Source of the DNA: a virus
Taxonomy: Duplodnaviria > Caudoviricetes
DNA length: 64,000 nucleotides
IMG/VR virus record: IMGVR_UViG_3300032218_002851
Coordinates: 1-64,000 of that record
Reading direction: 5' to 3' (one strand)
Shown piece by piece: positions 4,748-52,455 of this stretch (the first letter of the stretch is position 1; each line of letters starts with the position of its first letter). The translations under genes were made by a program, and so were the position numbers. Below the pieces are notes generated by a model. The model was given only the letters and a program-made list of their open reading frames with translations, made no database searches and was not told where the DNA came from.

Positions 4748-4748
4748 T

Positions 4749-18890: not shown

Positions 18891-18902
18891 ATTTAGTTAC
18901 TA

Positions 18903-19151
18903 TTACGCATCTATCGGTTTGAAAGTCGTAGAATTAATTCTACAAATAACCTTTTTCATCACAATCTTACCGTGCAAGTGATCGTAAGTATAAAAGTCAT
19001 CAATTATATTTTTAATCGATACAGAAAGATCTGGATTGATTACCGTTACAAAGTGCTGTACTTGCATTTCAGCAACCTTAGGTTCTGCAACCTTCGGAGT
19101 TGCGTAAGTGGGGTGTACCTGCTGAATCGAATATCTCGGATCTATATGCAT
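18903..19151 (-). CDS. Hypothetical protein
   Basis: ORF track. Confidence 0.4.
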   Translation of the reverse strand: MHIDPRYSIQQVHPTYATPKVAEPKVAEMQVQHFVTVINPDLSVSIKNIIDDFYTYDHLHGKIVMKKVICRINSTTFKPIDA

Positions 19152-19899: not shown

Positions 19900-20530
19900 G
19901 TTCAACAGCTTCCCGAATTTCAGCAGCAGCGCGAACAGGGTCAGCAGCACCATAGATTGCAGCACCTACTACAACGATATCAGCACCAGCATCGATAACT
20001 TGGCGAACGGTATCCTTGTTAATGCCGCCAGCCACTGAGACCATTACTGGTAGGCTTAGACCAACGATTGCCTTGAGGTCCTCGAATGGCGTCTGTCCTC
20101 TCGCCTGAGCATCTAGTCCAGTATGTACGCCGATGATGTGGGCACCTAACTCGGCAACCTGGAAAGCTTTTTCCATCTTATTTGGAACGCTAATCAAGTC
20201 AACCTGTGCCATACCACCTTCTCTAAGCTTTGCTGCTTCAATAACACCAGAGATGGTTCCCACGTCCGCAGCACCAAGTACTGTAACGATATCTGCGCCA
20301 ACTTTAAAGAAAGGCGACGCTTCGTACAATCCGGCGTCCATTGTCTTGAGGTCCGCTAGAACCTTACGTGTAATAGAATACGCTCGTACAGTTTCGACAA
20401 CGCGAATTCCGTTAACCTTAACGCATGGAGTACCGAGTTCGATGATGTCTACATAGGGTGAGATAAGTTGAGCTAGACGAATTGTGTGTTCATAGTCTAG
20501 AGTATCGAGTGCTGCTTGAATTAATGCCAT
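19892..20530 (-). CDS. hxlA: 3-hexulose-6-phosphate synthase (Hps)
   Basis: IQAALD, IIELGTP, ADLKTMDAG.YEA, GVHTGLDAQARGQTPF, VAGGI and VVGAAIYG motifs; methanotroph-like type. Confidence 0.95.
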   Translation of the reverse strand: MALIQAALDTLDYEHTIRLAQLISPYVDIIELGTPCVKVNGIRVVETVRAYSITRKVLADLKTMDAGLYEASPFFKVGADIVTVLGAADVGTISGVIEAAKLREGGMAQVDLISVPNKMEKAFQVAELGAHIIGVHTGLDAQARGQTPFEDLKAIVGLSLPVMVSVAGGINKDTVRQVIDAGADIVVVGAAIYGAADPVRAAAEIREAVERG

Positions 20531-26266: not shown

Positions 26267-26648
26267 TGCGTAAATCTTTTAGTAAATCAGGATGTGCATG
26301 ATCGAAATGACGCATAACAATACCAGCCACCGAATTTGCTTCGTTTTCTTGAGGACTGCCAGTGTGACCAGCTTTTGGACCAAGTTCGCCGCGCAATTCT
26401 TGTCGCCAATGTACCAATTCATGTGCTAGAGTGCGAAGTACATCAATCACATGGCGATTGCCTGCTACAACTCTGATATTACCATCATGATACTTGCCGA
26501 AAGTTCCGTCTAGGCCAGTGTCTAGAAAAATAATTTTAGGCAGTTCTTTTATTCCCAGTCTTTTTTGGGCAAAAGGTATAAATCTCACAAGAATTTTTTC
26601 TAATTTGGGGTGGCTTACACCTTCGATGCTGAAATCATTTGCTCTCAT
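26256..26648 (-). CDS. HExxH zinc metallopeptidase-like protein
   Basis: VLRTLAHELVHWRQ...GSPQENEANSVAG. Confidence 0.7.
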   Translation of the reverse strand: MRANDFSIEGVSHPKLEKILVRFIPFAQKRLGIKELPKIIFLDTGLDGTFGKYHDGNIRVVAGNRHVIDVLRTLAHELVHWRQELRGELGPKAGHTGSPQENEANSVAGIVMRHFDHAHPDLLKDLRNET

Positions 26649-26658
26649 AATGATATAT

Positions 26659-28536
26659 TTAGTTTCGCTTACGCATTATATCAATTGCTTTGGCTGTTCG
26701 TTTGGTCATTTGTTCACGATCAATAAAATCTGTTATATCCATTGTTCGCAAGTCATAGTCTGTTTGTTTTAGATTGTTGTCGTTAATAAATATTAATGCC
26801 TCAATGCGAGCCTCAGGCCAAATTGTACCGGGAAAATACGCAACAGCTTGCGTTGGGTTTGTCTTTTTAACTAATTTATATCCCTCTGATGCTTTTCCAG
26901 CAGTTTTTTCTCTGACCACTTCACTTGCCCAAAGCTTTTTAAATGTGCTGATGTTTATTTTTTTAGAAAAGTATTGGCTGATCAGCGTGGACATATAGTT
27001 AGAAGGCACATCTGGCTGCAAAATTTTATACAGCTTTTTTGCATATTCTTCTTGGGCAGCATTTGGATCATTGGCAATTGTCATGGCTTTGGCAACTCTT
27101 AGTAACACAAAATTCAGTTTTTCTACATCATCAAAGTAGTTTGGAGCAGCACTAGCAGTGGGCTGGCCGTCTTTGGCTGCATCATACGCATGACCCACGC
27201 TGCGTATTTCTACATAGTCCTTTCGTGGATTAATACTGAAGTATTTGCCAAAATCAAACTGTATCAAAGCTTGTTGTATACTTTGGTAATACCCATCGCG
27301 CAATGCTGAAATAGCCTGGTTTATGTTTTCAGTATTTTGAGATGCGAGTTTCTCAACAAATGATTGTGTAAAGTTATTGCTTAGTCGTCTAAAAAGAGAG
27401 AGTATTTGTTTGTCGCCGAGAAATACAGCGAATTTCACCAAGTCTATATTCATCACAGGCAAGCTGACGTTTATGTGAAATCCTGTGCTGGGATTGCTTT
27501 TGCCGCCGCATTCTTTCACCCAATCAAAAAATTTAGGTAATATAGCAAGACAACTTTGCAGTGACATAGGTGGAGAAACAATCTCACACGGCAGTTCATT
27601 TGGCGCATAATCCTTGATACTGGAATCTGGTTCTATTATCCATGTATCTTTGATTCTTGGTATGCCGTGATAAGCACTACTGAAATCTACTTTTACACCT
27701 AGATATTCGCGCAAAGAATCAGCTATTGTGGCAGCATTGGCGTTGGAAAAACCTAATGCAGAGTCAAGATTGCCACTCAGAGTTAAATATGGCCAAGGTA
27801 GATCTAATATATTGGCTGCACTCTTCATATCCACAATTCTTTTTGTCTCTAAAAAATGCGTTAAAAATTCGGGTGCATCATACCGTTCATAATAGGATTC
27901 TGTAAATTTTTTCTTTACTCTTTGATATAATTCATTTTTCGTAGAAATAGCATCTTCAATTACATTTTCTAGTTCAACCAATGCATCCCGGCGTGCTTGA
28001 AGATATCTGTTAGCCAAGTCGTTTTGTTCAACATTTAGATTGTCGCTGCCATCGTTCTTCCAATTCTGATAAGATTGGTGCGCAAGTTTAATTTGTTTAT
28101 CACTGAGCCCTTGAGATTTTAGTAGGTCGTGGGTTGTCTTTTCTCGTAATCCGTTGTTTCTAAGAACCTCGTCAAACACTTTTCGATATTCATGAAAGGC
28201 AAAATCTGATTCTATTTTATCCACGAACCAAGATTTATATAACAGCTTTAACGCATCGACTTTTTTTTGTACCAGTGAGCGTGGCGTGCGGACAGAACCG
28301 GTGGCTGATGAGAAAAAATCAATGATCTTATTCCAGCTTACGCCAGCCTCTGGATTTAATAATTTATTTTTAGAATAGTCTGGACTTTCTTTTTTTTGTA
28401 ATCCGGTTTGAGTTAATATCAACTCTGCTTCAAATCCAACTTTAATACCTTCTGTTGCCTTGCCCTGAGCAAATTTTTCCAAAGTCTTTGGCGTAATTTT
28501 GATTTCACTCAGAGGTTTGATTTCACCATATCTCAT
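26659..28536 (-). CDS. Amidoligase-like (COOH-NH2 ligase) protein
   Basis: GFEAE, EPDSSI, EIVSPP, STGFHINVS, KYFSIN and VEIRS. Confidence 0.75.
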   Translation of the reverse strand: MRYGEIKPLSEIKITPKTLEKFAQGKATEGIKVGFEAELILTQTGLQKKESPDYSKNKLLNPEAGVSWNKIIDFFSSATGSVRTPRSLVQKKVDALKLLYKSWFVDKIESDFAFHEYRKVFDEVLRNNGLREKTTHDLLKSQGLSDKQIKLAHQSYQNWKNDGSDNLNVEQNDLANRYLQARRDALVELENVIEDAISTKNELYQRVKKKFTESYYERYDAPEFLTHFLETKRIVDMKSAANILDLPWPYLTLSGNLDSALGFSNANAATIADSLREYLGVKVDFSSAYHGIPRIKDTWIIEPDSSIKDYAPNELPCEIVSPPMSLQSCLAILPKFFDWVKECGGKSNPSTGFHINVSLPVMNIDLVKFAVFLGDKQILSLFRRLSNNFTQSFVEKLASQNTENINQAISALRDGYYQSIQQALIQFDFGKYFSINPRKDYVEIRSVGHAYDAAKDGQPTASAAPNYFDDVEKLNFVLLRVAKAMTIANDPNAAQEEYAKKLYKILQPDVPSNYMSTLISQYFSKKINISTFKKLWASEVVREKTAGKASEGYKLVKKTNPTQAVAYFPGTIWPEARIEALIFINDNNLKQTDYDLRTMDITDFIDREQMTKRTAKAIDIMRKRN

Positions 28537-30737
28537 CGGATTTGCCTGATATCCAGATCATCGAATGTCATGTTAGCAAACATATCTGCTGGATAAGGTT
28601 TTTTGATTGCTGCTTGCCAAGCATCGTGTTCATTAGCAGCATCTACTTCTAGATAACGAGTATCGTGATTAGTTCCTGCATAGCGTTTGAATCCCACCAT
28701 ATAGCGTTTTAGTTTGGTGGATGATTTTGGTTCGTCAGTCTTTTTTGAACTGCTGATTTTTTGGGCTAGTAGTTGGCGCTGAGTAGCAAGATCACTGATT
28801 TCACTGCCTTCTGCCTTGTTGATTTCATAACCATATTTTAAAAAGTCTCGTAGTGATCCATTGCCGTATTTGTTGAATGCTGCTCGCAATGCCTCCCACC
28901 CAATCATATCAGGTAAAAACATCACCTGCTCTTGATTTATATCAGATATAACCCAATCATGTTTTTTAAAGTCTGATGTATCTTGTTGTTCTTTGGGCTT
29001 GACAGATGCAAGTACCTTGTCGGCCCATTCTTTTTTAAGAGTGTTTGAATTGATCAACCCTACCATGTATTTGCAGAATAATCCAATGATATCATCCATT
29101 TCGGTTGGATCTACTGAAACTCTGGATCCTTTGGTTCTTACATCAGAAGAAGCAAATTTTGTCTGATGATATTTCGTAAAGCCTTTTGCGGTAGACTCAG
29201 GATCAGTGTCTTTTGGATTCCAATATTTCAGAATGGTCGGTGATAATACTTTATACAACTTCTTGAAGTATTCATTTCGTTCTGCTTCAGGATTTGCAGC
29301 AATATACATTGCCTGAGCATAGCGCATTAAAGTGTTTTTCAATTTGTCAATATCATCAAAATAATCTTTTCCGCCGGCGCTGCGAAATTCTACATAATTT
29401 GCTTTAGGATTAATACTGAAATATTTGCCAAATCCTTGGCCGCCAGCGGAACTCTGATGTATCATAAAATGTGATGCATCGGTTATTCCCTTGCGCAAAT
29501 CTTCAAATGCACGTATCAGCATTGCTGTGTCTCTGGCTGCATTGGCCGGGCTATGATTGGACCTTATATTTTTGATTGTGGTTTTTATTCTTTTTAAAAA
29601 ACTTTCTGCATATGTACTATTTTGTCTTTTAAACTGCTTTAGCACATATTCATCACCCAGAAATAATGCTAATTTAACGGTATCAAGATTTGCAGTAGTC
29701 TGACTAGACAAGCTGACACCCATGTGAAATCCTGTGCTTTTGTTTGAATAAGCATTATTATCTTTTGCCCATGCAAAAAATTCAGGCAACCAATACTCTA
29801 CTACTTCTTTCAACGGCTTGGGTGGACTTATAATTTCAATCGGTAAATCTCTCATATCATCAACGATAATACTGCTATCTGCTTCAAATACCCAGTTATT
29901 CCCGTCTCTTGTGGCAGTATGATAGCCTGAACTGACTTTAACGGTTTCCTCACGGAATGTGCGTCTAAAATCATCTGCCAAGTCTCTAGCAGAAGCTTCA
30001 ACATATTCGCCCTGTTCATCACCGACGGCTATAAAAGGCCATTCAAGATCGTATGCATTAGCTACTTCCATCATTGAATCATATGTCTGTTGTACCCAGT
30101 AATCTTCATCGAGATCAAACTCGTCGGTAAATTCATCTCTTGCTTGACTCCAGTATACTCCTTGGGATCTTATCTCATCTTCTACTTTTTCTTCAAACTC
30201 TGCGTTAGCAGCGTCATATGCTTCATCATAAGTTTCTCGGTCCACGCTGTCACCACGCCGTAAGATGCGTTCAACATCTTCTTCTGAATATTTGTTGCGT
30301 AGTTTATCAGCAACTTCGATTTCTTCGTCCCATGATTCTTGGCGCATTAGTTCAGTAACTAGTTCAAGTTCAGATTCTGCAAACGATTCATCAATTTGTT
30401 TATCAACCCAGACACGATATTCCTCTCGCATTTCATATTCTAATCTTTGTCTGCCAGTCCGCGCTAATCCAAGATTAAAATCATCATTTGAGAAGAAACG
30501 TAGTACGTCCGGGATGCTGACTGGTCTTTCATCCATTTCATAATCTGGCTCCCCTTGTATGTTTGAATCTTGCACACCCATTCCTTCAAATACCAATTCA
30601 GCTTCAAAGCCAGCCATCATGCCTTCAGCAGCAGGACTGTTCATGAACTTGGTAAGCGCGGTAGGATCCATGCGTACTTCATCTAAAATTTGCTCAGATT
30701 CTTTTTTTGGTGCTAACTTGAAGTCTTTAAATTTCAT
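28533..30737 (-). CDS. Amidoligase-like (COOH-NH2 ligase) protein with acidic insert
   Basis: GFEAE, EADSSI, EIISPP, STGFHMGVS, KYFSIN and VEFRSAGG. Confidence 0.75.
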   Translation of the reverse strand: MKFKDFKLAPKKESEQILDEVRMDPTALTKFMNSPAAEGMMAGFEAELVFEGMGVQDSNIQGEPDYEMDERPVSIPDVLRFFSNDDFNLGLARTGRQRLEYEMREEYRVWVDKQIDESFAESELELVTELMRQESWDEEIEVADKLRNKYSEEDVERILRRGDSVDRETYDEAYDAANAEFEEKVEDEIRSQGVYWSQARDEFTDEFDLDEDYWVQQTYDSMMEVANAYDLEWPFIAVGDEQGEYVEASARDLADDFRRTFREETVKVSSGYHTATRDGNNWVFEADSSIIVDDMRDLPIEIISPPKPLKEVVEYWLPEFFAWAKDNNAYSNKSTGFHMGVSLSSQTTANLDTVKLALFLGDEYVLKQFKRQNSTYAESFLKRIKTTIKNIRSNHSPANAARDTAMLIRAFEDLRKGITDASHFMIHQSSAGGQGFGKYFSINPKANYVEFRSAGGKDYFDDIDKLKNTLMRYAQAMYIAANPEAERNEYFKKLYKVLSPTILKYWNPKDTDPESTAKGFTKYHQTKFASSDVRTKGSRVSVDPTEMDDIIGLFCKYMVGLINSNTLKKEWADKVLASVKPKEQQDTSDFKKHDWVISDINQEQVMFLPDMIGWEALRAAFNKYGNGSLRDFLKYGYEINKAEGSEISDLATQRQLLAQKISSSKKTDEPKSSTKLKRYMVGFKRYAGTNHDTRYLEVDAANEHDAWQAAIKKPYPADMFANMTFDDLDIRQIR

Positions 30738-34576: not shown

Positions 34577-35524
34577 TTACTTAACCCATTCTTGTGCTTT
34601 TTGAGCTACTTTAGCGGGTAATGGAACATATCCATCTTTGACTACAATTTCTTGTCCAGTCTTTGATAGCACCATCTTCATAAATTCCTTTTCAAGAGGA
34701 GCAAGAGATTCATTAGGATGCTTGTTCACATAAACATACAAGTATCGAGCTAAAGGATACTTACCGGAAATAGCATTTTCTGGTGTTGGTTCAATAGCCT
34801 CTCCACCGTCTTTACGAGAAAGAGGAAGAGCTTTAACGCTTGCAGTCTTATAACCAATACCAGAGTACCCAATACCGTTCAATGATTTAGTAACACCTTG
34901 TACCACAGAAGCAGATCCGGGCTGCTCATTTACGTTACTCTTATAGTCGCCTTTACAAAGAGCAAACTCTTTAAAGTAACCGTATGTGCCTGATACTGAA
35001 TTACGACCAAACATCTGAATGCGCTGATTGCCAAGATCACCAGTTACTCCTAGACCGCTCCACTGGCTAATGTCGTTATCGTGACCGCAAGCTCTTGTTG
35101 CAGAATAGATTGCATCAACTTGTGGGATAGAGATAGATGTGATCGGATTATCCTTATGAACAAAGACGGCTAGAGCATCAATTGCTACTGGAATAGCCGT
35201 TGGCTTATATCCATACTTGCCTTCAAATGCCTCTACTTCTTCCGACTTCATCATACGACTCATCGGACCTAGTGTTGCCGTGCCTTCAGTTAGAGCAGGA
35301 GGAGCCGTAGCTGAACCTGCTGCTTGAATCTGTACTGTGACATTAGGATAGAGACGTTTAAATTCTTCTGCCCAAAGTGACATAAGATTTGCAAGAGTAT
35401 CAGACCCAACTGATGATAGCGTACCCGATACACCTTCTACTTTTTCGTAGGGAACAATCTCCGCATCGATTGCTGATGCGGAGAAAGAGATTGTGGCAAG
35501 AATACTAAGTAATAGTTTTTTCAT
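34577..35524 (-). CDS. pstS: Phosphate ABC transporter substrate-binding protein
   Basis: Signal peptide; [46 protein letters not shown] and YPLARYLY. Confidence 0.95.
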
Positions 35525-35533
35525 AAATGCTCC

Positions 35534-36940
35534 TTACCAGAATACTGCCATACGAGTAACGATTGCTGATGGTTCAGAACCAGCATACTTACCACCTTCT
35601 ACATCAAGAACCTTGACATAGTTAGTCTGGAAGCGAACGTTCTGTACTGGAAACCAATTAACGCCAACTGATAGATTCTTTTCACGACCACCAGTGATTA
35701 AATCGCTATTCAAGTCTGTATCCGAGAATCGACCAACAAGTTCCCAAGCACCCCATCCACCTTTACCAACAAGAGACTGTGGCTTGACTGAATCAAAGAT
35801 ACCTTCTTGAAACTTATATGGACGAGATTCACCAGTTAGGAACCAGCCAGCAGAGACATAATAACCTTGGAAGTAAGGATTGCCAGCAGCAGTATTCACT
35901 TGCATACCAAGATATTCACTTTGTAGAGTAAATGGTCCCTGTACTACAACAAACTCACCGTTCCAGCGAAGTAGATGATCAGCACCAAATTTACCAGTAT
36001 CAATTAGGCGAGTAGATGTTTCATTGACTTCCATTCTTTCGCGAAGCTGAACGTTGTTACCATCCTTAAATCCACGATAAGAGACACCAGAACCTAGATG
36101 AAGTACATGACCACCATCATGCCAAGGTGCCCAAGTTACACGTCCAGTAGCAGCATAACCATCATTGAAGTCACGAGGATTGGTTTCATCTGCACCCTTA
36201 TCGGAAATGGTTTCTTGCTGGCGAGTACCAAAGATACCCCCGCTATAGGTAAAGTGATCTGTCCAAGTAGTTAGCTTGATACCGGGATTACGTTCACCAA
36301 CATAGTTAGCAAGAGCATTGACTGGCATTGCACGTTCTACAAATAGACCATTGTTTGAGCTATTGATTAGATCAAAGCTAAATGGTTCGTGTGACTGACC
36401 AATCTTGACACTTGTAGGATGTGCTACTGCATCAATACCGGGAAGCTTACCAACATATTCAACATAGGCATCCTTTAGACCTTCAATGCCTTTGTCTGAT
36501 TCACGGAAATCGTATTCAGCTTTGAACTTCCAATTAGTATTCAGTGTACCAGCAACACCAAGTCTTAGACGACGAAACTGACCTGCATCTGCCTGATTGA
36601 ATCCACCGTCTTTATCAAAGAAGGCAGTATCATAATGAATACGACCAATTGTGCGCCAAGCAAAATCTCCGGGCTTGTCTTTTAGTTCAAACTTACCGGG
36701 AGTAAGACCGGGAGTACCTAGCTGAGCAAGAGACTGTTCGACCTTTTTACCAACTTCTGCGCCAGCAGCATTGTTAGTTTCTTCATCAGCTTGAGCGGCA
36801 GACTTAAGTTCCTCATACGATTTGGCGTCAAGGGTTCCTCTAGTCTTTAGAGTATCCAGTAGCTGGATCATCGCATCGTTTGCAGCAAATGCTGGCGCGC
36901 TTAATAGGCACGACAGTAATACTATTGTGGATTTTCTCAT
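35534..36940 (-). CDS. oprP: Phosphate-selective porin OprO/OprP family
   Basis: Signal peptide; GRIHYD, RRLRLG..G, FVERA, WFLTGESR.Y, WELVGRFS.DL and GVNW; C-terminal aromatic W. Confidence 0.9.
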   Translation of the reverse strand: MRKSTIVLLSCLLSAPAFAANDAMIQLLDTLKTRGTLDAKSYEELKSAAQADEETNNAAGAEVGKKVEQSLAQLGTPGLTPGKFELKDKPGDFAWRTIGRIHYDTAFFDKDGGFNQADAGQFRRLRLGVAGTLNTNWKFKAEYDFRESDKGIEGLKDAYVEYVGKLPGIDAVAHPTSVKIGQSHEPFSFDLINSSNNGLFVERAMPVNALANYVGERNPGIKLTTWTDHFTYSGGIFGTRQQETISDKGADETNPRDFNDGYAATGRVTWAPWHDGGHVLHLGSGVSYRGFKDGNNVQLRERMEVNETSTRLIDTGKFGADHLLRWNGEFVVVQGPFTLQSEYLGMQVNTAAGNPYFQGYYVSAGWFLTGESRPYKFQEGIFDSVKPQSLVGKGGWGAWELVGRFSDTDLNSDLITGGREKNLSVGVNWFPVQNVRFQTNYVKVLDVEGGKYAGSEPSAIVTRMAVFW

Positions 36941-39764: not shown

Positions 39765-40274
39765 TTATACGGCGTCTTCTTGTGTGTCTTCTTCCCACAT
39801 TGCTTGAGAATTGACAATATCAAACTCTTGGTCGATGCATTCGGGCAGCATTTGGGCTGCGCTACCACTATCGCCCCACTCTTCATAATGCTGATCACTG
39901 CCATTGTGCCAAAGGCCAGCGAACTGCATGCCGGGCTCGTAGTAAAATGCACGAATATCAAATCCTTCGTGATTCACGAGATAATCATAAAACCCAATTG
40001 GCGGCGCCCAGGCACTGTCAAACTTCAATGCAAGCCGCTGTTGTTCTTGATCAAGCCAATCTGCCCAATCGCTGCCGTCATTGCCACCAACATCCCACTT
40101 GGTGCCCCAATGATCAATACACCAACTAAACCAACCTTCACCGTCATACAGTTCCGACGGGCAAGGCAAGAACTCTTGCATCATACGCCCTGCACGAAAA
40201 GCCGTGATCAGCCGATCAAGTTTCTCGCGGTCAACATGCGTGATATAAACACTGTTTGAACACCAATTTGGCAT
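39765..40274 (-). CDS. MPNWC-family phage protein
   Basis: MPNWCSN...WCIDHWGTKWDV...FDSAWAPP...YEPGMQFAG. Confidence 0.75.
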   Translation of the reverse strand: MPNWCSNSVYITHVDREKLDRLITAFRAGRMMQEFLPCPSELYDGEGWFSWCIDHWGTKWDVGGNDGSDWADWLDQEQQRLALKFDSAWAPPIGFYDYLVNHEGFDIRAFYYEPGMQFAGLWHNGSDQHYEEWGDSGSAAQMLPECIDQEFDIVNSQAMWEEDTQEDAV

Positions 40275-40311
40275 TGCGGATTCCTCTGTGCTGTTGTTTA
40301 AGTATGCGTGC

Positions 40312-40341
40312 AGTATAAGCTACTGCACGCAGTGCTGTCAA
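40312..40341 (-). promoter_or_regulatory. sigma70-type early promoter
   Basis: TTGACA-18-TATACT. Confidence 0.7.
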
Positions 40342-40449
40342 GTCATCACCGAATTTTCTCCTTATCGGTTTCCGAAGACGTAGACCGCACAGTACACGGC
40401 TATCGCAACCCCAATCATCAGTTCAGACACGTATTCCATGTTGTTCTCC

Positions 40450-40665
40450 TTAGATTTCGACAGAGATGTGACCGGCGAAGCTGAACTTCCGAGTACCGGG
40501 GATGTAGGCTAAGATATCGGTTTCGATATCGCCGTACTCGTCTTCCACACCGATGATAGTAATTACATTCCACTGTTTGAATTCAGTGTCGAAGACGATG
40601 CGGTCGGCTTCAGGAAAGCGGCGCAGCAGGATGGCTTTTTGTTCTTCGCGAGTCAGGTTAGTCAT
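40450..40665 (-). CDS. Small early protein
   Basis: Directly after promoter 40698-40726. Confidence 0.55.
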   Translation of the reverse strand: MTNLTREEQKAILLRRFPEADRIVFDTEFKQWNVITIIGVEDEYGDIETDILAYIPGTRKFSFAGHISVEI

Positions 40666-40697
40666 GATGTTTTCCTATTTTTCTGTTCAATATAAGG

Positions 40698-40726
40698 ATA
40701 TTACACAACGACGAACCGTTTGTCAA
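40698..40726 (-). promoter_or_regulatory. sigma70-type early promoter
   Basis: aacggTTGACAaacggtt...-17-TAATAT. Confidence 0.8.
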
Positions 40727-40783
40727 CCGTTTTTGAGAGATTTTGCAGGATTTTTTTCTCCTGCAAAATCAACAACTTACGCT

Positions 40784-41065
40784 TTACTTGCGCATAGCCT
40801 TTTCAAACATCGAATCTAGACGACTCTTTTGTTCAGCGCAGCAACCCTGAGCAGCATCGCCAGCAGCCTGGGCAGACGTAGCAGACTCCAGTGCCCTTCG
40901 GGCTAGCTTGTCAGTTTCGTTAACCTTGCTTGTTACTACGTCTAACTTGCCACCTAGCAATTCTACCTTGCTGCTAAGGACAGTAACGTCCTTTTGAGTA
41001 GCATAGCTACAACCACTGAGCGTAATAACACCTGTCAACACAGCGATACTAAACATCTTATTCAT
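40784..41065 (-). CDS. Lpp/OprI-like alanine-zipper outer-membrane lipoprotein
   Basis: Lipobox LSGC; Ala-rich heptads; ends CC..Q..RLD.MFEKAMRK. Confidence 0.8.
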   Translation of the reverse strand: MNKMFSIAVLTGVITLSGCSYATQKDVTVLSSKVELLGGKLDVVTSKVNETDKLARRALESATSAQAAGDAAQGCCAEQKSRLDSMFEKAMRK

Positions 41066-41120
41066 AAATTTTCTCCTTTAAATGATGAGCTTGTTATCTT
41101 AGCTTGTTTTGAACTGATGT

Positions 41121-41327
41121 TCAAATATTTTGGTCATCATAAGAGTCAAAAAGAACGCTTGGATCTTGTAGCCCGATCAATGATCCGCCTGGACCTTTGC
41201 GAAGAATACCTTTTTCTAGCCCGTGTTGTTTGATATTTTTCCATTCTTCTTCTAGAAGGTTGGTGAAATCTTCTTCGGAACCTAAAAATTCTTCAGGCCA
41301 TGGTTTGTTCTTTATTTTATTTTTCAT
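41121..41327 (-). CDS. Small hypothetical protein
   Basis: ORF track. Confidence 0.45.
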   Translation of the reverse strand: MKNKIKNKPWPEEFLGSEEDFTNLLEEEWKNIKQHGLEKGILRKGPGGSLIGLQDPSVLFDSYDDQNI

Positions 41328-42324
41328 TTGCTACACACTCCGCGTGTTCAATAAATTGTCGCGCTGAATACCGCCAAGTCCAGCGTTCAGCAGTATACCT
41401 AACTCGTCGTCTATCTATATTAGCGCATTGGTCTAAGGCTGTTTGCAAGTCCGTGTTTATCCATCCGTTTATTCCGTTTTCAATTACTTCCAGCGGCCCT
41501 GGTTCTGGATATGCAGCTACTGGAGTGCCAGAAGCAATGGCTTCTAGCAGCACAATCCCAAACGTATCAGATTTACTGGGAAACACAAATGCATCAGCAT
41601 TGGCATACCATTTAGCCAATGCTGCACCTTCTTGATGACCCGGGAAAATAACATCTGGATATTTTCGCTTTAACGAAGCGAGATATGGGCCATCACCTAC
41701 CAAAACTTTTTGGGAATGATTCAATCGACAAAAATCATCCAAGCCTTTTTCCTTGCTAGCCCTACTCACGCACAAAATATAGCCACCAGTTGTTTGGTCT
41801 CTTTTATCCAAGGAAAATAACTTTCCATCCACACCTCTAGTCCATATAGAAGTGTTGTACATTCCGTGCTGGTGCAAACACTGTGCTAAACCTACAGTAG
41901 GACAAAGAATCGCTTGGCTATTTCGATGAAACCAACGAAAGTAAGGATATGTCAAGTGTGTCGGTATTCCCCAACGACGCTTAATAAGATCAGGAAACAG
42001 TGTATGAAAACCTGTGGTAAAAGGTATGGTGTTGCGCTTACAAAATCGCCGAGTCATGAGTCCGATAGGACCTTCGGTAGCTATGTGTATGTTCGTGTCG
42101 CTATCAACCCTTGATGAAAGTTCATTGGTTACTGCGGATAAATTACAAACATATTCGATTTCAGGATATGCTTTTAATATTCTACGTTTGAAAGCCGGCA
42201 GATACGGATGAATCACATCACAAGTCACACCTAACTCTGAAAAATAAGGCAAAATATTTTGATATGAGCGAATCACGCCATTTACTTGGGGAATCCAGGC
42301 ATCAGTAGCTATCAATATTTTCAT
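41317..42324 (-). CDS. agt: GT4 glycosyltransferase, Agt-like (glycolipid synthase)
   Basis: MKILIATDAWIPQVNGV, HIATEGPIG, WTRGVD and FPSKSDTFGIVLLEA.ASGTPVAAYP. Confidence 0.8.
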   Translation of the reverse strand: MKILIATDAWIPQVNGVIRSYQNILPYFSELGVTCDVIHPYLPAFKRRILKAYPEIEYVCNLSAVTNELSSRVDSDTNIHIATEGPIGLMTRRFCKRNTIPFTTGFHTLFPDLIKRRWGIPTHLTYPYFRWFHRNSQAILCPTVGLAQCLHQHGMYNTSIWTRGVDGKLFSLDKRDQTTGGYILCVSRASKEKGLDDFCRLNHSQKVLVGDGPYLASLKRKYPDVIFPGHQEGAALAKWYANADAFVFPSKSDTFGIVLLEAIASGTPVAAYPEPGPLEVIENGINGWINTDLQTALDQCANIDRRRVRYTAERWTWRYSARQFIEHAECVANEK

Positions 42325-43070
42325 GAACTCATGCTACTCCATTCGATAATACGCCAGTTGCCATTAAAATCTTCAACCAGTGCTGTGCAACTTTCCACAA
42401 AATCGCCGTCGTTCATGTATTCAACGCCATCAATCTGTTTGATTTCTGCATGGTGAATGTGTCCACAAATAATACCGTCATAACCTTTGCGACGACAATA
42501 CTCAGCCATGTTTTTCTCATAGCTTACAATATGACCTACTGCAGTTTTTACAGCCAACTTCAAATACTTGCTTAGACTCCAATAGCCAAATCCAAATTTG
42601 CGACGAATCCAGTTGAACTGCGTGTTTAGTCCTAAAATCATTTCATAAAGGTAATCTCCTAAGTAACTAATCCAACGATGATAATTCAAGATGCCATCAA
42701 ACATGTCGCCATGAATCAACAAATATCGTCGGCCATTAAGGGCAGTATATTCATAACGATTGTGGATCTTGATCAATCCAAAACTTAAGTCTAGTCCTAG
42801 AGTGGCTCGTAAAAATTCATCATGATTTCCTACGATATAATGAACTTTGGTTCCTTTTTTAGCGTGACTTAGAATCTTGCGAACTACATTGGTATGAGTT
42901 TGATCCCATCGCCATTTCTTCTGCTGTATCTTCCATCCGTCGATGATATCTCCGATCAAGAATAGATTTTCTGCTTGATTGTGTTTGAGAAAATCTAAAA
43001 GCAATAAGGACTTGCAATCCTTACTGCCTAAGTGCAGATCGCTGATACAAATAGTCTTATATCTGTTCAT
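42321..43070 (-). CDS. plcP: PlcP-like phospholipase C (LpxH-like metallophosphoesterase)
   Basis: ISDLHLG, GDIIDGW, GNHDE, IHGD.FD, GFGYWSLSKYLK, CGHIHH and YMNDGD.VESCTALVE; coupled to GT4 gene. Confidence 0.8.
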   Translation of the reverse strand: MNRYKTICISDLHLGSKDCKSLLLLDFLKHNQAENLFLIGDIIDGWKIQQKKWRWDQTHTNVVRKILSHAKKGTKVHYIVGNHDEFLRATLGLDLSFGLIKIHNRYEYTALNGRRYLLIHGDMFDGILNYHRWISYLGDYLYEMILGLNTQFNWIRRKFGFGYWSLSKYLKLAVKTAVGHIVSYEKNMAEYCRRKGYDGIICGHIHHAEIKQIDGVEYMNDGDFVESCTALVEDFNGNWRIIEWSSMSS

Positions 43071-43094
43071 GATATTATTGACGAACTCTATAAG

Positions 43095-43331
43095 TCATTC
43101 TGTATCTTCCTCTATTACAACGTAGTGTTTGCCAATATGAATAAAACCAGCATAGGTTACTGCATTTTTTAGTGCCTGTGCTTCTCCACAAGCCTCAGCT
43201 ATGCTAAGAAAAATCATAATCAGCACACCTAATGCTAAGCCAAGTAACACACTGTGCTTATCAAATTTAAACATTTCTCTGTCTGCTTTAGCTAATATTG
43301 TTATGTTCAGTGTTGCTATTTGATTCTTCAC
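43095..43331 (-). CDS. Small membrane protein
   Basis: Central TM helix. Confidence 0.45.
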   Translation of the reverse strand: MKNQIATLNITILAKADREMFKFDKHSVLLGLALGVLIMIFLSIAEACGEAQALKNAVTYAGFIHIGKHYVVIEEDTE

Positions 43332-43479
43332 TTTCGTCTACAAGATCAAATACCCAATTGATCGGAATATTTAAATTTTTCGCAATATCGCGAATTTTAA
43401 CACCAGCTTGATATGCGCACACAACTTCGATATATAAATCAGACATATTGCTCATAGTTTTGATTCTCGTTAGGTTCAA
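43288..43479 (-). CDS. Small HTH-like protein
   Basis: GVKIRDIAKNLNIPINWV. Confidence 0.5.
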   Translation of the reverse strand: MNLTRIKTMSNMSDLYIEVVCAYQAGVKIRDIAKNLNIPINWVFDLVDESEESNSNTEHNNIS

Positions 43480-43672
43480 ACATAGTCGGAATTGAAGGCA
43501 TTGTCATCCAATGCGTAATATCTAATGGTTTGTTATATTGATTATAAAAGGCAAAAGGCGTAACTCCCTTTACATCTCGGTATTGGAACCAAGCGATTTC
43601 AATAAATTCTCCATTGAACACCAAAAAATAACCGTTGAAGGTAGGTAGTCGATCTCTTACCTTAATCCACAT
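43439..43672 (-). CDS. DUF551-like phage protein
   Basis: MWIKVRDRLP...ITHWMTMP. Confidence 0.7.
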   Translation of the reverse strand: MWIKVRDRLPTFNGYFLVFNGEFIEIAWFQYRDVKGVTPFAFYNQYNKPLDITHWMTMPSIPTMFEPNENQNYEQYV

Positions 43673-43996
43673 CGAAGTTTTCCATGGGTCTAATCCTTTT
43701 TTTGTTCAAGACCTATTTAGTCAATCGATGATAATATCAGTAATCTTTCGATCACGAAATATATAATAACTGTTAACTAGATCATGATTGATTCAAATAC
43801 ATTCATTGCCAGGTCAAATCTCATAGTCTTCGATGTTGTTTTTACGCAGATCTTCAATGACCTTCAAGATATTAAATTCATTGTAATCTTGCATTTTCCT
43901 AACTCCAGTTCGTTGACTTCAAGTGTATATTACATCCATAACCTAGATTTGTAAATTACAACGGTAAAAGATGTATAGAATGTCCTGGTCTAGAAT

Positions 43997-44025
43997 GAAA
44001 AAGAGGCAGACTAATGTCTGCCTCT
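43997..44025 (-). terminator. Rho-independent terminator downstream of pqqA
   Basis: agaggcagac-taat-gtctgcctct 10-bp stem plus U-tract on minus strand. Confidence 0.8.
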
Positions 44026-44051
44026 CATTTATCGAAAGTTTGTGCTAAATC

Positions 44052-44126
44052 TCACCGAAATGAGACATAAGCGGTGATTTCGAAACCATTGCGAAGGTCT
44101 TGAAAAGAAGGTGTAGTCCACTGCAT
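44052..44126 (-). CDS. pqqA: PQQ precursor peptide PqqA (24 aa)
   Basis: Read manually: MQWTTPSFQDLRNGFEITAYVSFR; W..P.F.DLR.GFE(xxx)Y signature; RBS TAAGGAG. Confidence 0.9.
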   Translation of the reverse strand: MQWTTPSFQDLRNGFEITAYVSFR

Positions 44127-44150
44127 GTTAGTTCTCCTTAAATGCACTAT

Positions 44151-44156
44151 TATTTA
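44151..44156 (-). promoter_or_regulatory. Late-type promoter TAAATA for pqqA
   Basis: TAAATA 24 nt upstream of pqqA ATG; same motif precedes many late/structural genes here. Confidence 0.6.
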
Positions 44157-44252
44157 CCGTTGCTCTTCAGATAAGCCAACACTATCATCACGGACACGAG
44201 TTTTGAATACCACATTAGGCACAATTTCAGTTGTCATCTTTTTCTTCTTGAT

Positions 44253-44534
44253 TTATCGATTTATGCCATTGATCATTTTGCGCAAATCTGTTGAACTCAG
44301 CGGTCTGTACTCATGAAACCGAGAAGGCTTGCCGAGCATCACATAGTTTTGAACATCAATTTTGCTCATATAACACCACGGTGTAAAATCTGGTTCAATA
44401 ACTTCTCCAGATTCATCTAATACCAAATAGTGTCGTATACTAAATCCTTCAGTTGGTCCGCTTTTTTCTCTAGGTCTATAAGAATAATTTCCAACTCGAA
44501 ATCGAACCGCAGGCAATTTATCAATTTTCTTCAT
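44253..44534 (-). CDS. Hypothetical protein
   Basis: ORF track. Confidence 0.5.
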   Translation of the reverse strand: MKKIDKLPAVRFRVGNYSYRPREKSGPTEGFSIRHYLVLDESGEVIEPDFTPWCYMSKIDVQNYVMLGKPSRFHEYRPLSSTDLRKMINGINR

Positions 44535-44728
44535 TTTATCTGTATGGTATAATCCAAGCCGCGCACACGAGTGCTAGCAATATTACATTTTGGAATTAAG
44601 CTATCAATTAAACTTAACACGATATTTTGATCATTTTCATCTAAGAGCTTGAGAGTCCGAAGGTTTCGCAATGTAGTTCGCACTGTTGCAGTTGCCCGAT
44701 TGTTACCAATAGTAATCGTCAGATTCAT
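44531..44728 (-). CDS. Small hypothetical protein
   Basis: After promoter 44760-44788. Confidence 0.5.
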   Translation of the reverse strand: MNLTITIGNNRATATVRTTLRNLRTLKLLDENDQNIVLSLIDSLIPKCNIASTRVRGLDYTIQIK

Positions 44729-44759
44729 GGTCAGTCTCCTTAGTTGATGTTAGAAATTA

Positions 44760-44788
44760 ATTCTAGATGATTAGAATAGCTTTGTCAA
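44760..44788 (-). promoter_or_regulatory. sigma70-type promoter
   Basis: TTGACA-17-TAGAAT. Confidence 0.7.
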
Positions 44789-44801
44789 CTCTGACTCAGC
44801 C

Positions 44802-44827
44802 AACTGTGCGACAGACGCCGCACAGTT
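44802..44827. terminator. Hairpin, probable terminator
   Basis: aactgtgcg / cgcacagtt 9-bp stem. Confidence 0.5.
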
Positions 44828-44954
44828 ATTTATTATGGATATGATTATCCGATTAGTTTGACTACATTATGCATGTAGAAAGCCATTGCAGCAATGTCGA
44901 TAAAAATAATCGAAATTAATGATGGGTTAAGCTTGTTCATTTTATTCTCCTTTA

Positions 44955-45185
44955 TTATTTGGTTTTGTCAGCTTTATTGGTTGTTGGAAACCACTGTTCA
45001 GTAATTGAGTCAGTAGTATACTTGCATAGATCCACGGCGTTGTTAACCAACATCTTGGCGAATGCTGTTTGGGCATCGATAAAAGCATTTGCTGCTTTGT
45101 TCAGTGTCTTGTCAGTGAAAACACGATTAGTCACTATTTTTTTAGTATCTTGGAAAGTGTCAATGAAAAACTCAGGTGTAAACAT
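44955..45185 (-). CDS. Small helical protein (phasin-like?)
   Basis: FIDTFQ..KK......F....L......FIDAQT.FAK amphipathic pattern. Confidence 0.45.
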   Translation of the reverse strand: MFTPEFFIDTFQDTKKIVTNRVFTDKTLNKAANAFIDAQTAFAKMLVNNAVDLCKYTTDSITEQWFPTTNKADKTK

Positions 45186-45337
45186 AACTATCTCCTTTTT
45201 TTTCTAATATAACTTTATTTATACAAATTATATGTTGCAGTGCAAAATAATACTAGTGTTTTGGAGAAAAATATATTTCTAAATTATATGGCTAAATATT
45301 GTCACATCCATTCAATCAATCAGACAGGAGATCAATC

Positions 45338-45703
45338 ATGGAAAATATTTTAGGTGTCATTTTTTCGTTGGCAATATTATTGTTAGCTTATATTTTGTAT
45401 AGCTTTATTGCCAATCGTCTAACACAAGAACAATCAATCACCACACCAACAGAATCTGTAGTAACAGATGAGATACTTGAAGTATCTCAGCTTGAGACTG
45501 AAGTAAAACCAGCAGAAGAAGTTGTAGCTGAGTCTGTTGTAGAGAAACCCAAAGAAATTCTAGTTGTAAAGGCTGCCAAGCCTAAGAAGACTAAGGTAAT
45601 TGAACCTAAGAAGGAAAAAACTACCAAGACTTCCAAAGCACCTGTCACTAAAGCAAAACAAACAGCCAATGCTAAAAGCAAAAAGAAATCAGACAATACC
45701 TAA
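45338..45703 (+). CDS. Membrane-anchored protein with Lys/Ala-rich tail
   Basis: AGGAG RBS, TAAATA upstream on plus strand, N-terminal TM. Confidence 0.6.
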   Translation: MENILGVIFSLAILLLAYILYSFIANRLTQEQSITTPTESVVTDEILEVSQLETEVKPAEEVVAESVVEKPKEILVVKAAKPKKTKVIEPKKEKTTKTSKAPVTKAKQTANAKSKKKSDNT

Positions 45704-46720
45704 TTGTTCTGCACGCCTAGCTAGTTCTGCACTAGCTAGGTTCTTGCACTTACTTTCGGCTTGAATGTCAAACTCTGGCAAAAAACTCAAAGCCCAATCG
45801 TTTACTGCAGTGTTCCAATAGAAATCTGAATGCGCTCGCAGTTTGCTTTTACTAAAGCCATTGTTTAACAGAATTGTGTGGTCAGGCATCACATTTGTCT
45901 CATGATTTACCAGTACATCTTCACGACTTACGCTGTAATGCATGGCAGGACGTACACCACGCCAGCTGTCTAGCACACGCTTAACTCGATTGTCATCGGG
46001 TTGAATGTATTCACCTTCTCGAATCCAATTATGATGAATATCTAGCACAATAGGCAATAGATCAGACAGTGACAAACATTCTTCTAGTCCGTGACTCATT
46101 TCTTCATTTTCAATAGTGATGCAGTTGCGAGCCTCGGGCGAGAGTCTGGCATATGCTGTGCGAATACCTTCAGCACCTGCTCGGCCTGCAATATGCACGT
46201 TGATCTTAAAGTCTTGAAATGTCTTGCCATAGCCCATCCACCGAACCATGTTAGCGTGATATTCAAAATCTTCGATGCTGCGTTCTACAATTGCTGGTGT
46301 TTCGGATGCCAGCACTACAAATTGTCCAGGGTGAAAACTAAGACGTACATCATTAACGCGAGCGATCTCACCAATTTCAGCAAAACCATGCTCACAATGA
46401 GCAATTACATCTGCACGTTGCCAGAAATATCGCCAGTCTGGATGCGTGTACATTGGCAGAAGATCACTGCCGATACGCATCATACGAAGATGCGACGGAT
46501 TCTCGCCGACTAGTTTTACTAGCTTAAGAGTAACCGTGATATTTTCGGTCATTAAATTCCATAGCTTTTGTTCAGCAATGTCTCGTTTTTGGCGAGACAA
46601 CCAAGCTACGGTAGTTGAGCCAGTATTCAGTCCTTCCTTAGATTGAATACCTTTTTTAGGATGGCGTTCTACAAATTTGCAGCAGAAGCCGATTCGAGGA
46701 ATGCGTTTTAGTGTAGTCAT
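45689..46720 (-). CDS. uvsE: UV damage endonuclease
   Basis: RIGFCCK, MMRIGSD, RLSFHPGQF.VL.S, IENEE, VLDIHH, RPAMHYS and RAHSD. Confidence 0.9.
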   Translation of the reverse strand: MTTLKRIPRIGFCCKFVERHPKKGIQSKEGLNTGSTTVAWLSRQKRDIAEQKLWNLMTENITVTLKLVKLVGENPSHLRMMRIGSDLLPMYTHPDWRYFWQRADVIAHCEHGFAEIGEIARVNDVRLSFHPGQFVVLASETPAIVERSIEDFEYHANMVRWMGYGKTFQDFKINVHIAGRAGAEGIRTAYARLSPEARNCITIENEEMSHGLEECLSLSDLLPIVLDIHHNWIREGEYIQPDDNRVKRVLDSWRGVRPAMHYSVSREDVLVNHETNVMPDHTILLNNGFSKSKLRAHSDFYWNTAVNDWALSFLPEFDIQAESKCKNLASAELARRAEQLGIV

Positions 46721-50241: not shown

Positions 50242-50432
50242 TTATTTTTCTTAGGTTTAAAATTTTTCCCTGAATCCCACACATCAATGTATGAACCTTT
50301 TGGCAGGTCAGGTTCTTGCAATGCTCCCATTGCTTGTATCATTGCTTTGACTGGTTTGTAACGCTGGGTAGTTAAAACTTTATTATCGCTAGGTTTAATC
50401 TGTTTATTATTGTCAAAATCTTTAAATCTCAT
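50235..50432 (-). CDS. Small hypothetical protein
   Basis: MRFKDF N-terminus; ATGA overlap with cyclase. Confidence 0.5.
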   Translation of the reverse strand: MRFKDFDNNKQIKPSDNKVLTTQRYKPVKAMIQAMGALQEPDLPKGSYIDVWDSGKNFKPKKNNQ

Positions 50433-51448
50433 TTACTTGTTGCCCTATACGTTCCGTCCCAATCTTCTGGTTTACCTTCTTCCATACGTTCAATCATCGC
50501 TTCATAATACTTCTTCATTTCTTTATTTGTTTTAGAAAGCTTCTTCGCTATATTGATAGCTTCAGCCCAGCTACCTGCATAGTATTCTGAAAGGAATTTC
50601 TCTTGCATTGGTTCTTCCCCAAGAGTATATATCTTAACTCCCAACTTCTTACCTTTGACGGCAATACAATCTAACTCTACTACTTTGAATTCGTCTTTGA
50701 CTTGTTCCGCTGTAATTGGCCCCAATATAATTCGAACTCCATACGGTTTGGATTGACCTTCCAACCTTGAAGCAAGATTGACAGAATCGCCGAGACAGGT
50801 ATAATCAAAACGCTGAACGCTACCCATATTGCCAACGACAACAGTCCCAGTGTTAATACCCAAACCCATTCCAAAAGCAGGAATACCTTCAGGCTCAATT
50901 TGTCGATTAAATTCATCAAGACTCTCCATCATTTGTATTGCTGTTCTTACTGCATTTTTGGCGTGTTGTGGATCGTCTAAAGGAGCATTCCAAAATGCCA
51001 TCTGAGCGTCACCAATATACTTGTCAAGCGTACCATTGTTCTCAATAATCTTCTCTGTCATCGCCGTCATATATCGATTCATAATAGAGGTTAGACCTTG
51101 AACGTCTGCGCCATAATGCTCAGAGATCGCAGTAAACCCACGAACGTCTGTAAACATAATAGACAATTCTTTAGATTCACCACCGAGCTTCAATAGATCT
51201 GGATTCTTCTGTAGTTTCTCTACTAGTGCTGGACTTAAATATGTACCAAACTGCTTCTTTATTTGCAGTTTTTGATTCAATTCGGTTATAAAACGCACAA
51301 TATTGATATGCAAAGACACCAATATCACCGCAATGGTAGGAAGTGTAATATCTAACAGCATTCGGTATTCGTGATATGCATATCTAGACCCACTGTATAA
51401 CGCTGCCACGAACAGTACAGGCAATATATAACTCAAATGCTTGTTCAT
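50429..51448 (-). CDS. Class III adenylate/guanylate cyclase (C-terminal part)
   Basis: MFTDVRGFT, DKYIGDAQMAFWNAP, GLGINTG.VVVGNMGS and GDSVNLASRLEG; likely start MNKHL at 51448. Confidence 0.9.
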   Translation of the reverse strand: MNKHLSYILPVLFVAALYSGSRYAYHEYRMLLDITLPTIAVILVSLHINIVRFITELNQKLQIKKQFGTYLSPALVEKLQKNPDLLKLGGESKELSIMFTDVRGFTAISEHYGADVQGLTSIMNRYMTAMTEKIIENNGTLDKYIGDAQMAFWNAPLDDPQHAKNAVRTAIQMMESLDEFNRQIEPEGIPAFGMGLGINTGTVVVGNMGSVQRFDYTCLGDSVNLASRLEGQSKPYGVRIILGPITAEQVKDEFKVVELDCIAVKGKKLGVKIYTLGEEPMQEKFLSEYYAGSWAEAINIAKKLSKTNKEMKKYYEAMIERMEEGKPEDWDGTYRATSK

Positions 51449-52455
51449 CGACGCCTCCATACTGCAAAAAATACTAACAACAGTCCCATAACTAGCATGG
51501 CTAGTATTTCTGCACCATCTGCCCAATCAGGACGTTTTATATTAGATCCTGCGATCATGGTAGAAATCACAGCAGCTTGTAAATCCTGTGGCCATACACT
51601 ACCTACTGCTGTTGGAACTGGATTGGATATGCCAGCCGCACTAACGCCTACAATTACAACTGCACCTTCAAAGTTTTCTAATAAGTCAACTGCTGATACA
51701 GATTGAGCACGCTGACTCCAGTCGATCCATACACGCCCTAAGTTGTCAGTAGCTATTGGACCAAACTTAGGTATACGCATTTTTTCCACGCCAAGTGCAT
51801 TTAGTTTAACTTGGAAGGTAGTATCGCCGGCAGCAGCACGTAGAGCTTCCATTGCTAATGAAGGATATAGTTTCTTATCTACGGTGGCAATCAATGGTGC
51901 TCTACGAACAACGCCATCAACTTCTGGTAATGTATTAACGGTTCCTACACCGTATGCTCGATCTTCTAATAAGGATACATTAGATATGAGTCCTGGATAT
52001 TCTATTATGCGATCAAGAAACTCTGGCCCCATCACTGCGCTACCCGGCACATGCGCTTTGTTTTTGCTTTTTTCTGCGGGCATGTTAGCAAGCACCACTG
52101 GATTTTCATCTAGTACAGCAGCTAACGCTTTATCGCCGCCTTGACGATCTGTTTCAGGCATCATAACGTCCCATACTACTAATCCAGCTTTTCGGGCGTA
52201 GAGATCGCTGATTAGATCGGCGTATATTTCTCGATTAAAAGGCCACTGTCCATATTTGTCCAGTGTTGCTTCGTCTATGTTGATTGTGAATATATTTGTT
52301 GGTTTAGAGGGTTCACTGGTTATCAATGTGTCAAAATAACGCAGTCTTACTGATTCAACAAAGTTTGGATCTGCGATTCTAACTGATAATACTATGCCTA
52401 GTGTTGCTAGTGCTAGCCAAGGACTTACTAAAATTTTCAATAGTATTTTTTTCAT
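51445..52455 (-). CDS. CHASE2 sensor domain protein (N-terminal part of cyclase)
   Basis: INIDE.TL.KYGQWPFNR, DGVVRR.PL, PSLA.E.LR and V.P.DLQA. Confidence 0.85.
   Translation of the reverse strand: MKKILLKILVSPWLALATLGIVLSVRIADPNFVESVRLRYFDTLITSEPSKPTNIFTINIDEATLDKYGQWPFNREIYADLISDLYARKAGLVVWDVMMPETDRQGGDKALAAVLDENPVVLANMPAEKSKNKAHVPGSAVMGPEFLDRIIEYPGLISNVSLLEDRAYGVGTVNTLPEVDGVVRRAPLIATVDKKLYPSLAMEALRAAAGDTTFQVKLNALGVEKMRIPKFGPIATDNLGRVWIDWSQRAQSVSAVDLLENFEGAVVIVGVSAAGISNPVPTAVGSVWPQDLQAAVISTMIAGSNIKRPDWADGAEILAMLVMGLLLVFFAVWRRR

Follow-up and report, generated by a model that had tools for sequence, protein, structure and literature searches.

A predicted plcP-agt lipid-renovation operon in phage DNA, and the recurrence of plcP-glycosyltransferase pairs in viral contigs

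Here we analysed 64 kb of phage DNA (hereafter the window), with which the IMG/VR virus record IMGVR_UViG_3300032218_002851 (89,857 bp) begins. Judged by sequence, a pair of its genes is the phage's own version of plcP-agt, the lipid-renovation operon of bacteria, in the 'type 2' arrangement (Sebastian et al. 2015). A previous sequence-only reading of this DNA had placed a coupled esterase and family 4 glycosyltransferase (GT4) at 41317-43070, and two minus-strand open reading frames (ORFs) of these kinds lie exactly there:

42321..43070, minus strand: plcP, predicted PlcP-type Mn-dependent metallophosphoesterase (phospholipase C) of 249 aa, P0002 (from Pfam Metallophos, tree and motifs)
41317..42324, minus strand: agt, predicted Agt1/GTcp-type GT4 diacylglycerol glycosyltransferase of 335 aa, P0001 (from Pfam, residues and tree)
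42321..42324, minus strand: overlap ATGA of the plcP stop and the agt start (read from the sequence)

We report the identity of both genes, their catalytic and substrate residues, the structure of the operon, its phage context and its conservation among viruses, from which we infer the activities of the enzymes, the timing of their expression and their benefit to the phage. The use that we consider probable is that the phage would mine the phosphorus of the host membrane with this pair while keeping the membrane intact.

The esterase belongs with PlcP

P0002 is a calcineurin-like metallophosphoesterase (Pfam Metallophos, 52 bits), and a different identity has to be weighed for it, namely that it is a divergent LpxH and its GT4 neighbour a lipopolysaccharide (LPS) or cell-wall glycosyltransferase, with which the phage would modify lipid A/LPS synthesis. 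The best NCBIfam matches of P0002 are two LpxH models, LpxH is also the closest fold in PDB, the source annotations read 'LpxH', and virome papers place viral lpxH under LPS biosynthesis, giving it as an LPS auxiliary gene (PMC10653327). Both models, however, score far under their cut-offs (NF003743, 51.4 bits against 134; TIGR01854, 38.5 bits against 190.35), and LpxH sequences in PDB are matched at E values of about 1e-4 only, in the N-terminal half. In the AlphaFold (AF2) model of P0002 (predicted local distance difference test 77) the metallophosphoesterase core is modelled with confidence and a helical insertion, or lid, at residues 125-182 with low confidence; the resemblance of the model to LpxH, at 17-23% identity, is what is expected because PlcP is a lipid-acting sister family.

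Comparison with named cellular proteins, taken from records of chromosome size in the plasmid collection, pointed the same way. For the validated PlcPs we used strain orthologues as references, recognised by species and gene context. One match to P0002 was found in the Pseudomonas aeruginosa record (51% identity, 269 bits; PA3219-type) and one in that of Sinorhizobium meliloti (48%, 254 bits), whereas the sole match in the Escherichia coli K-12 chromosome was LpxH (27%, 20 bits, E 5.6e-4); a single-protein scan of genome contigs gave as its sole match a distant LpxH-like gene of Lutibacter. At the P. aeruginosa reference a glycosyltransferase gene overlaps the 3' end of the esterase gene by 4 nt and is followed by an adenylate cyclase gene, which we take to be cyaB (PA3217). 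Since this arrangement agrees with that of the PA3219-PA3218 operon, which encodes PlcP and Agt1 (PMC8528852), we identified the reference with that operon. The identities of P0002 to the named PlcP-type proteins (46-51%) are like those of the validated PlcPs among themselves (46-47%; PMC8528852). Both families occur on one Ralstonia replicon, where a genuine LpxH lies about 0.94 Mb from a PlcP-like gene that adjoins a GT4; it is the PlcP-like protein that P0002 matches (49% identity).

The sequence-only reading had called for a phylogeny separating PlcP from LpxH. In a tree of 35 esterases built with IQ-TREE the two clades split with support of 100/99, and P0002 groups with the PlcP-type proteins of P. 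aeruginosa (PA3219-type), S. meliloti, Methylobacterium, Sphingomonas and Ralstonia in a clade supported at 99/99. The motifs of P0002 are ISDLHLG, GDIIDGW, GNHDEFLR, HGDMFDG and CGHIHHA; GNHDEFLR, HGDxFD and CGHIHHA are found in every PlcP-type sequence compared, while five proteobacterial LpxH sequences have GNRDFL, HGDxLCT and HGHTHR, so that P0002 has neither GNRD nor HGHTHR. Its set of binuclear-metal motifs (DxH, GD, GNH[D/E], H, GH, GHxH) is complete, and D11/H13, D41, N82/H83, H120, H204 and H206 are invariant across 20 homologues. On scores, motifs and tree we reject the LpxH/LPS reading, to which the character of the neighbouring GT4 is likewise opposed (see below) and which we regard as very improbable. 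On these sequence grounds P0002 is a predicted PlcP, not an LpxH.

The glycosyltransferase is of the Agt1/GTcp type

P0001 combines an N-terminal Glyco_transf_4 with a C-terminal Glycos_transf_1 domain (Pfam), the GT-B architecture of GT4 enzymes, and is almost as long (335 aa) as GTcp of SAR11 (334 aa). GTcp uses a His104-Asp256 dyad in which Asp replaces the usual Glu of GT4 enzymes (Wei et al. 2021, PMC8231724), carries the motifs GRVAxEKN and FPSxTDTFG, and binds diacylglycerol through T162, R163 and W320; mutagenesis found the dyad, the motifs and the diacylglycerol-binding residues all to be essential (PMC8231724). Mapped by motif rather than by alignment with the GTcp sequence, every residue reported as essential has its counterpart in P0001, which carries G16, G85, G88, H107, T162-R163, R188, K193, D253-T254-F255-G256, E261 and W317. 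The counterparts of the two motifs are SRASKEKG (with R188 and K193) and FPSKSDTFG (with D253, T254, F255 and G256), and those of the diacylglycerol-binding residues are T162, R163 and W317, the last of which is invariant in an alignment of seven phage and bacterial Agt sequences.

The identity of P0001 is 37% to the PA3218-type Agt1 of P. aeruginosa and 40-44% to the GT4s that adjoin plcP in Ralstonia and Methylobacterium. With these Agt1 and plcP-adjacent sequences it forms a clade supported at 100/100 in the GT4 tree, apart from the PA0842-type Agt2, which was recognised by its position beside plcH-plcR, and from GT4s adjoining PAP2 genes. We therefore predict P0001 to be a diacylglycerol glycosyltransferase of the Agt1/GTcp type; its grouping with Agt1 and its diacylglycerol-binding residues argue against an LPS glycosyltransferase. 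The PlcP-Agt pair that the sequence-only reading had recognised is in this way borne out in both partners, as an operon in a phage.

Structure of the operon and of its transcription unit

The agt-type GT4 lies directly downstream of plcP, a linkage to a gene for the synthesis of non-phosphorus lipids that has been described as 'type 2' (PMC4796936). The ATGA overlap suggests that the two genes are translationally coupled, and the PA3219/PA3218-type genes of P. aeruginosa have the same 4-nt overlap (contig L015, 3465-4277 and 4274-5329). The following features surround the pair:

43095..43672, minus strand: three small co-oriented ORFs (DUF551, 63 aa and 78 aa) immediately 5' of plcP (from the ORF list)
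44001..44026, minus strand: terminator-like hairpin after pqqA (11-bp stem with 6 GC pairs, then a T-run)
44052-44126, minus strand: pqqA of 24 codons, upstream of the small ORFs (Pfam PqqA 33.8 bits, cut-off 21.1)
40784-41065, minus strand: Lpp/OprI-family alanine-zipper outer-membrane lipoprotein, two genes downstream of agt (NF040598 51.9 bits, cut-off 43)

The three small ORFs, of which one matches DUF551 with 35.8 bits and the last is separated from plcP by 24 nt, probably belong to one transcription unit with plcP-agt; a related contig, L009, has the identical order of DUF551, two small ORFs and plcP-agt. The likely upstream boundary of this unit is the hairpin at 44001-44026, next to which there is a promoter-like TTTACA-17-TAATAT at 43955-43927, both elements being matches to consensus only. 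Alignment of the upstream regions of the window and L009 revealed no common promoter motif. In L009 a similar small ORF with an E-x-x-x-Y pattern, seen in the alignment, stands in the place of pqqA, and an Alanine_zipper gene likewise lies downstream of the plcP-agt pair.

The operon is part of a phage genome

The estimated completeness of the record by CheckV is 25%, which suggests a full genome of roughly 360 kb. Nearly all ORFs of the window are on the minus strand, and the record has PHROG matches to tail, virion structural, nuclease and endonuclease families, those to tail and structural families being found on both sides of plcP-agt among co-oriented phage genes. The phage setting assumed by the sequence-only reading thus agrees with the virus record, the PHROG matches and the near-uniform use of one strand. 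The G+C content at third codon positions (GC3) of plcP and agt is like that of other phage genes of the window, indicating long residence in the phage and not a recent capture. A megablast search with 40000-46000 against GenBank phages gave no match.

IMG/VR includes some false positives, and a related contig, L007, carries the NCBI label 'MAG: Proteobacteria bacterium'; the pair could on these grounds be bacterial DNA that came into the record by mis-binning, by chimerism or from the flank of a prophage, and be nothing other than an ordinary host plcP-agt operon. The tail and structural genes on both sides of the operon and its phage-like GC3 speak against this, the 'MAG' contig itself has many small ORFs besides genes for an S-AdoMet lyase and a pectate-lyase-type protein, and other carriers have genes for UvsX and DnaB, ribonucleotide reductase (RNR) or NadV-type proteins. 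We hold bacterial contamination to be extremely improbable and rejected it on gene context.

plcP and a neighbouring glycosyltransferase recur in viral contigs

The sequence-only reading had treated the locus as a single case, a view that does not hold: a profile scan of IMG/VR found a relative encoded in at least 572 viral contigs, and the module is present in hundreds of them. We surveyed the downstream partner in the best 80 of these loci, 70 of which extend for 1.2 kb or more beyond the plcP-like gene on its downstream side, and in 69 of the 70 a glycosyltransferase lies directly downstream on the same strand. The partner is a GT4 of the Agt type in 28 loci and a family 2 glycosyltransferase (GT2) of 239 aa in 41, one locus having nothing there. 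The GT2 proteins, for example L010:8907-9626 and those in L039, L042 and L044, match Glycos_transf_2 and, weakly, Glyco_transf_21, and may be an alternative diacylglycerol glycosyltransferase.

The closest relatives of P0002 and P0001 stand side by side on phage-like contigs, and the same pair is found in L005, L007 and L009. Because the pair recurs in these three contigs and a glycosyltransferase is downstream in 69 of the 70 loci, the pairing is not due to chance. We read the gene neighbourhoods of eight related contigs (L007, L009, L010, L033, L034, L035, L120 and L121), all of which are phage-like: the window and L009 are syntenic, L007 carries the genes named above, L010, L033 and L034 measure 359 kb, 513 kb and 210 kb, L035 encodes RNR and a methylase, L120 NadV-type genes, and L121 UvsX and DnaB. 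In the ESM Atlas the nearest clusters are largely viral.

Homologues also occur in cultured phages. Pelagibacter phage Mosig EXVC030M has one (Mosig_00120) that is 50% identical to P0002 and adjoins pstS, and Synechococcus phage S-SRM01 has one that is 37% identical; both are annotated as UDP-2,3-diacylglucosamine hydrolase/diphosphatase and both fall in the clade of P0002.

Phosphate genes and the proposed use of host membrane phosphorus

Two further genes with a bearing on phosphorus supply lie 5.4 kb from plcP-agt, the porin gene directly upstream of pstS:

35534..36940, minus strand: oprO/oprP-type phosphate-selective porin, 468 aa (Pfam Porin_O_P 223 bits, cut-off 20.9)
34577..35524, minus strand: pstS, phosphate-binding protein, 315 aa (TIGR02136 279.7 bits, cut-off 206.6; Pfam PBP_like_2; phrog_5385)

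The porin and PstS would form a pair for phosphate uptake across the outer membrane and through the periplasm. We searched for the Pho box CTGTCAT-N4-CTGTCAT with up to three mismatches and found none upstream of plcP; the whole window has 4 matches where 8.2 are expected, for a canonical site that may not be the one bound by PhoB of the host. A CTGTCAC half-site alone stands about 80 nt upstream of oprP.

In the mechanism that we propose, PlcP, a phosphoesterase with a binuclear metal site and a helical lid that would bind lipid, would act during infection at the cytoplasmic face of the inner membrane and remove the phosphorylated head group from phosphatidylethanolamine, phosphatidylglycerol and phosphatidylcholine of the host, leaving diacylglycerol. 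The coupled Agt would at once add a sugar from a uridine diphosphate (UDP)-sugar, giving monoglycosyl- and/or glucuronosyl-diacylglycerol, and by this capping of diacylglycerol the bilayer would survive until lysis. Phosphatases, probably those of the host, would release inorganic phosphate from the freed head groups for nucleotides and for the replication of a very large genome. The OprP and PstS of the phage would raise the uptake of external phosphate, so that the phage would have two sources of phosphorus.

The phosphate theme is supported by oprP and pstS in the window and by the position of plcP beside pstS in Mosig. Several observations weigh against the proposed use: plcP lacks the Pho box upstream, its partner in most of the viral loci surveyed is the GT2 (41 of 70) and not an Agt, and we identified among the phage genes no phosphatase that would act on the freed head groups. 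The cultured phages Mosig and S-SRM01 encode a PlcP-type protein as the window does, but without an adjacent glycosyltransferase. Finally, a general role in modification of the envelope would also agree with the Lpp/OprI gene that lies two genes beyond agt.

Such a role is the substance of another explanation, in which the same enzymes would convert phospholipid into glycolipid in order to alter the envelope, for example for superinfection exclusion, receptor display, resistance to membrane-active stress or the timing of lysis, the gain of phosphorus being incidental. That a glycosyltransferase is nearly always coupled to plcP in viral loci suggests that the glycolipid product matters, although the coupling is equally expected if its aim is to avoid a toxic build-up of diacylglycerol. 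The lipoprotein gene, which recurs in L009, and the lack of a Pho box fit this explanation too, and bacterial lipid remodelling has been linked to altered phage attachment and grazing (PMC9938194, PMC9457565). The pstS and OprP porin genes of the window and the pstS beside plcP in Mosig point instead to phosphate economy, and we consider an envelope purpose unlikely. Mining of membrane phosphorus is the use that we retain as probable.

Host

The window encodes 3-hexulose-6-phosphate synthase of the ribulose monophosphate pathway (hps, 19892-20530, minus strand; TIGR03128 226.6 bits, cut-off 200), whose homologues on other environmental contigs share 76-95% identity. Its best named cellular matches, in Methylobacillus and Methylotenera of the Methylophilaceae and in a metagenome-assembled genome of Methylococcaceae, are all at about 63% and do not discriminate the host. 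A permuted (two-piece) transfer-messenger RNA (tmRNA) at 18562-18931 on the minus strand (Rfam tmRNA_permuted 122 bits; beta_tmRNA 102 bits, gathering threshold 84) has the tag peptide VASNDDHYEMALAA according to ARAGORN. Since hps and pqqA suggest a methylotroph, and the tmRNA is of the beta type, we somewhat favour a betaproteobacterial methylotroph as the host; one resembling the Methylophilaceae would agree with all three features. Neither pmoC (PF04896) nor phoH (PF02562) was found in the 90-kb record, which at about 25% completeness does not imply their absence from the genome, and the ESM Atlas gave no host signal. The sequence-only reading had assumed a methanotroph and argued from the large intracytoplasmic membranes of such hosts; this part of it found no support, because the tmRNA is of the betaproteobacterial type, the record has no pmoC, and hps and pqqA indicate a methylotroph only.

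Other features of the window

The remaining features are the following, all on the minus strand:

2327-2872 and 3980-4801, minus strand: Fe/Mn superoxide dismutase and a second, unrelated metallophosphoesterase (phrog_1649)
23738-30737, minus strand: three very large ORFs of 842, 625 and 734 aa
45689-46720, minus strand: UvdE-type UV damage endonuclease (Pfam, 136 bits)
50429-52455, minus strand: candidate frameshift, programmed shift or split gene

In L010/L055, a phage contig of 359 kb, a superoxide dismutase gene occurs too, at 0.9 kb downstream of the plcP-GT2 pair. Among the large ORFs those of 625 and 734 aa have weak Amidoligase_2 matches, and that of 842 aa matches only phrog_36119, of unknown function. 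The UvdE-type endonuclease is kept at the same relative position in L009.

Significance

Phage production is phosphorus-limited in many lakes and oceans, and to our knowledge the phage responses to it described so far concern external phosphate only, by way of pstS and related genes. If our reading is correct, a viral route to an internal pool of phosphorus, the phospholipids of the membrane, would be a new mechanism of resource capture. By an order-of-magnitude estimate from textbook figures, the phospholipids of a bacterial membrane contain millions of phosphates, while about 0.7 million go into each copy of a genome of about 360 kb. Infected cells would then have a lipid composition of their membranes specified by the virus, and glycolipid-to-phospholipid ratios in the field could partly reflect infection, beside phosphate stress of the host.

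Placing these results in a wider frame, we see an even balance for and against the view that plcP with a glycosyltransferase, either the Agt-type GT4 or the 239-aa GT2, is a widespread undescribed phage module that would convert host phospholipids to glycolipids and pass the freed phosphorus to genome replication. Its carriers would be large freshwater and marine phages in which the gene is currently filed as 'lpxH / LPS biosynthesis', and the label of viral 'lpxH' as an auxiliary gene of LPS biosynthesis would need correcting. Searches of the full-text literature found no description of a phage-encoded PlcP, their coverage of subscription journals being thin enough to leave such absence unproven, and no paper that discusses the Mosig gene as a PlcP; the S-SRM01 paper mentions neither the plcP homologue nor lipids.

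Comparison with known systems

LpxH has in common with P0002 the calcineurin-like metallophosphoesterase fold and an inserted helical lid, but differs from it in sequence (17-27% identity), in its motifs (GNRD for GNHD, HGHTHR for CGHIHHA), in its separate clade (100/99) and in the LpxH models, which P0002 fails.

The closest likeness is to the bacterial PlcP-Agt systems, known from P. aeruginosa (PA3219/PA3218; PMC8528852), SAR11 strain HTCC7211 (PlcP with Agt/GTcp; PMC4796936, PMC8231724), S. meliloti (SMc00171) and Methylosinus trichosporium OB3b (plcP-agt; PMC9239053). The window pair has the enzyme families, the order of plcP then agt and the 4-nt overlap of P. aeruginosa, and the residues for binding metal, UDP-sugar and diacylglycerol are all kept. 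It differs from the bacterial pathway in being encoded by a phage and in having no recognisable Pho box. The phage PlcP is shorter (249 aa) and without the N-terminal extension of 20-30 aa that the protein has in P. aeruginosa and S. meliloti, and it belongs to an environmental clade of which all members examined are phage contigs.

The pstS-type genes of cyanophages and pelagiphages are likewise host-derived, are carried by lytic-type phage genomes and act on phosphorus supply. These known genes raise the uptake or scavenging of external phosphate, whereas plcP-agt would tap the internal pool of the host membrane and, unlike them, needs a second enzyme to keep that membrane intact.

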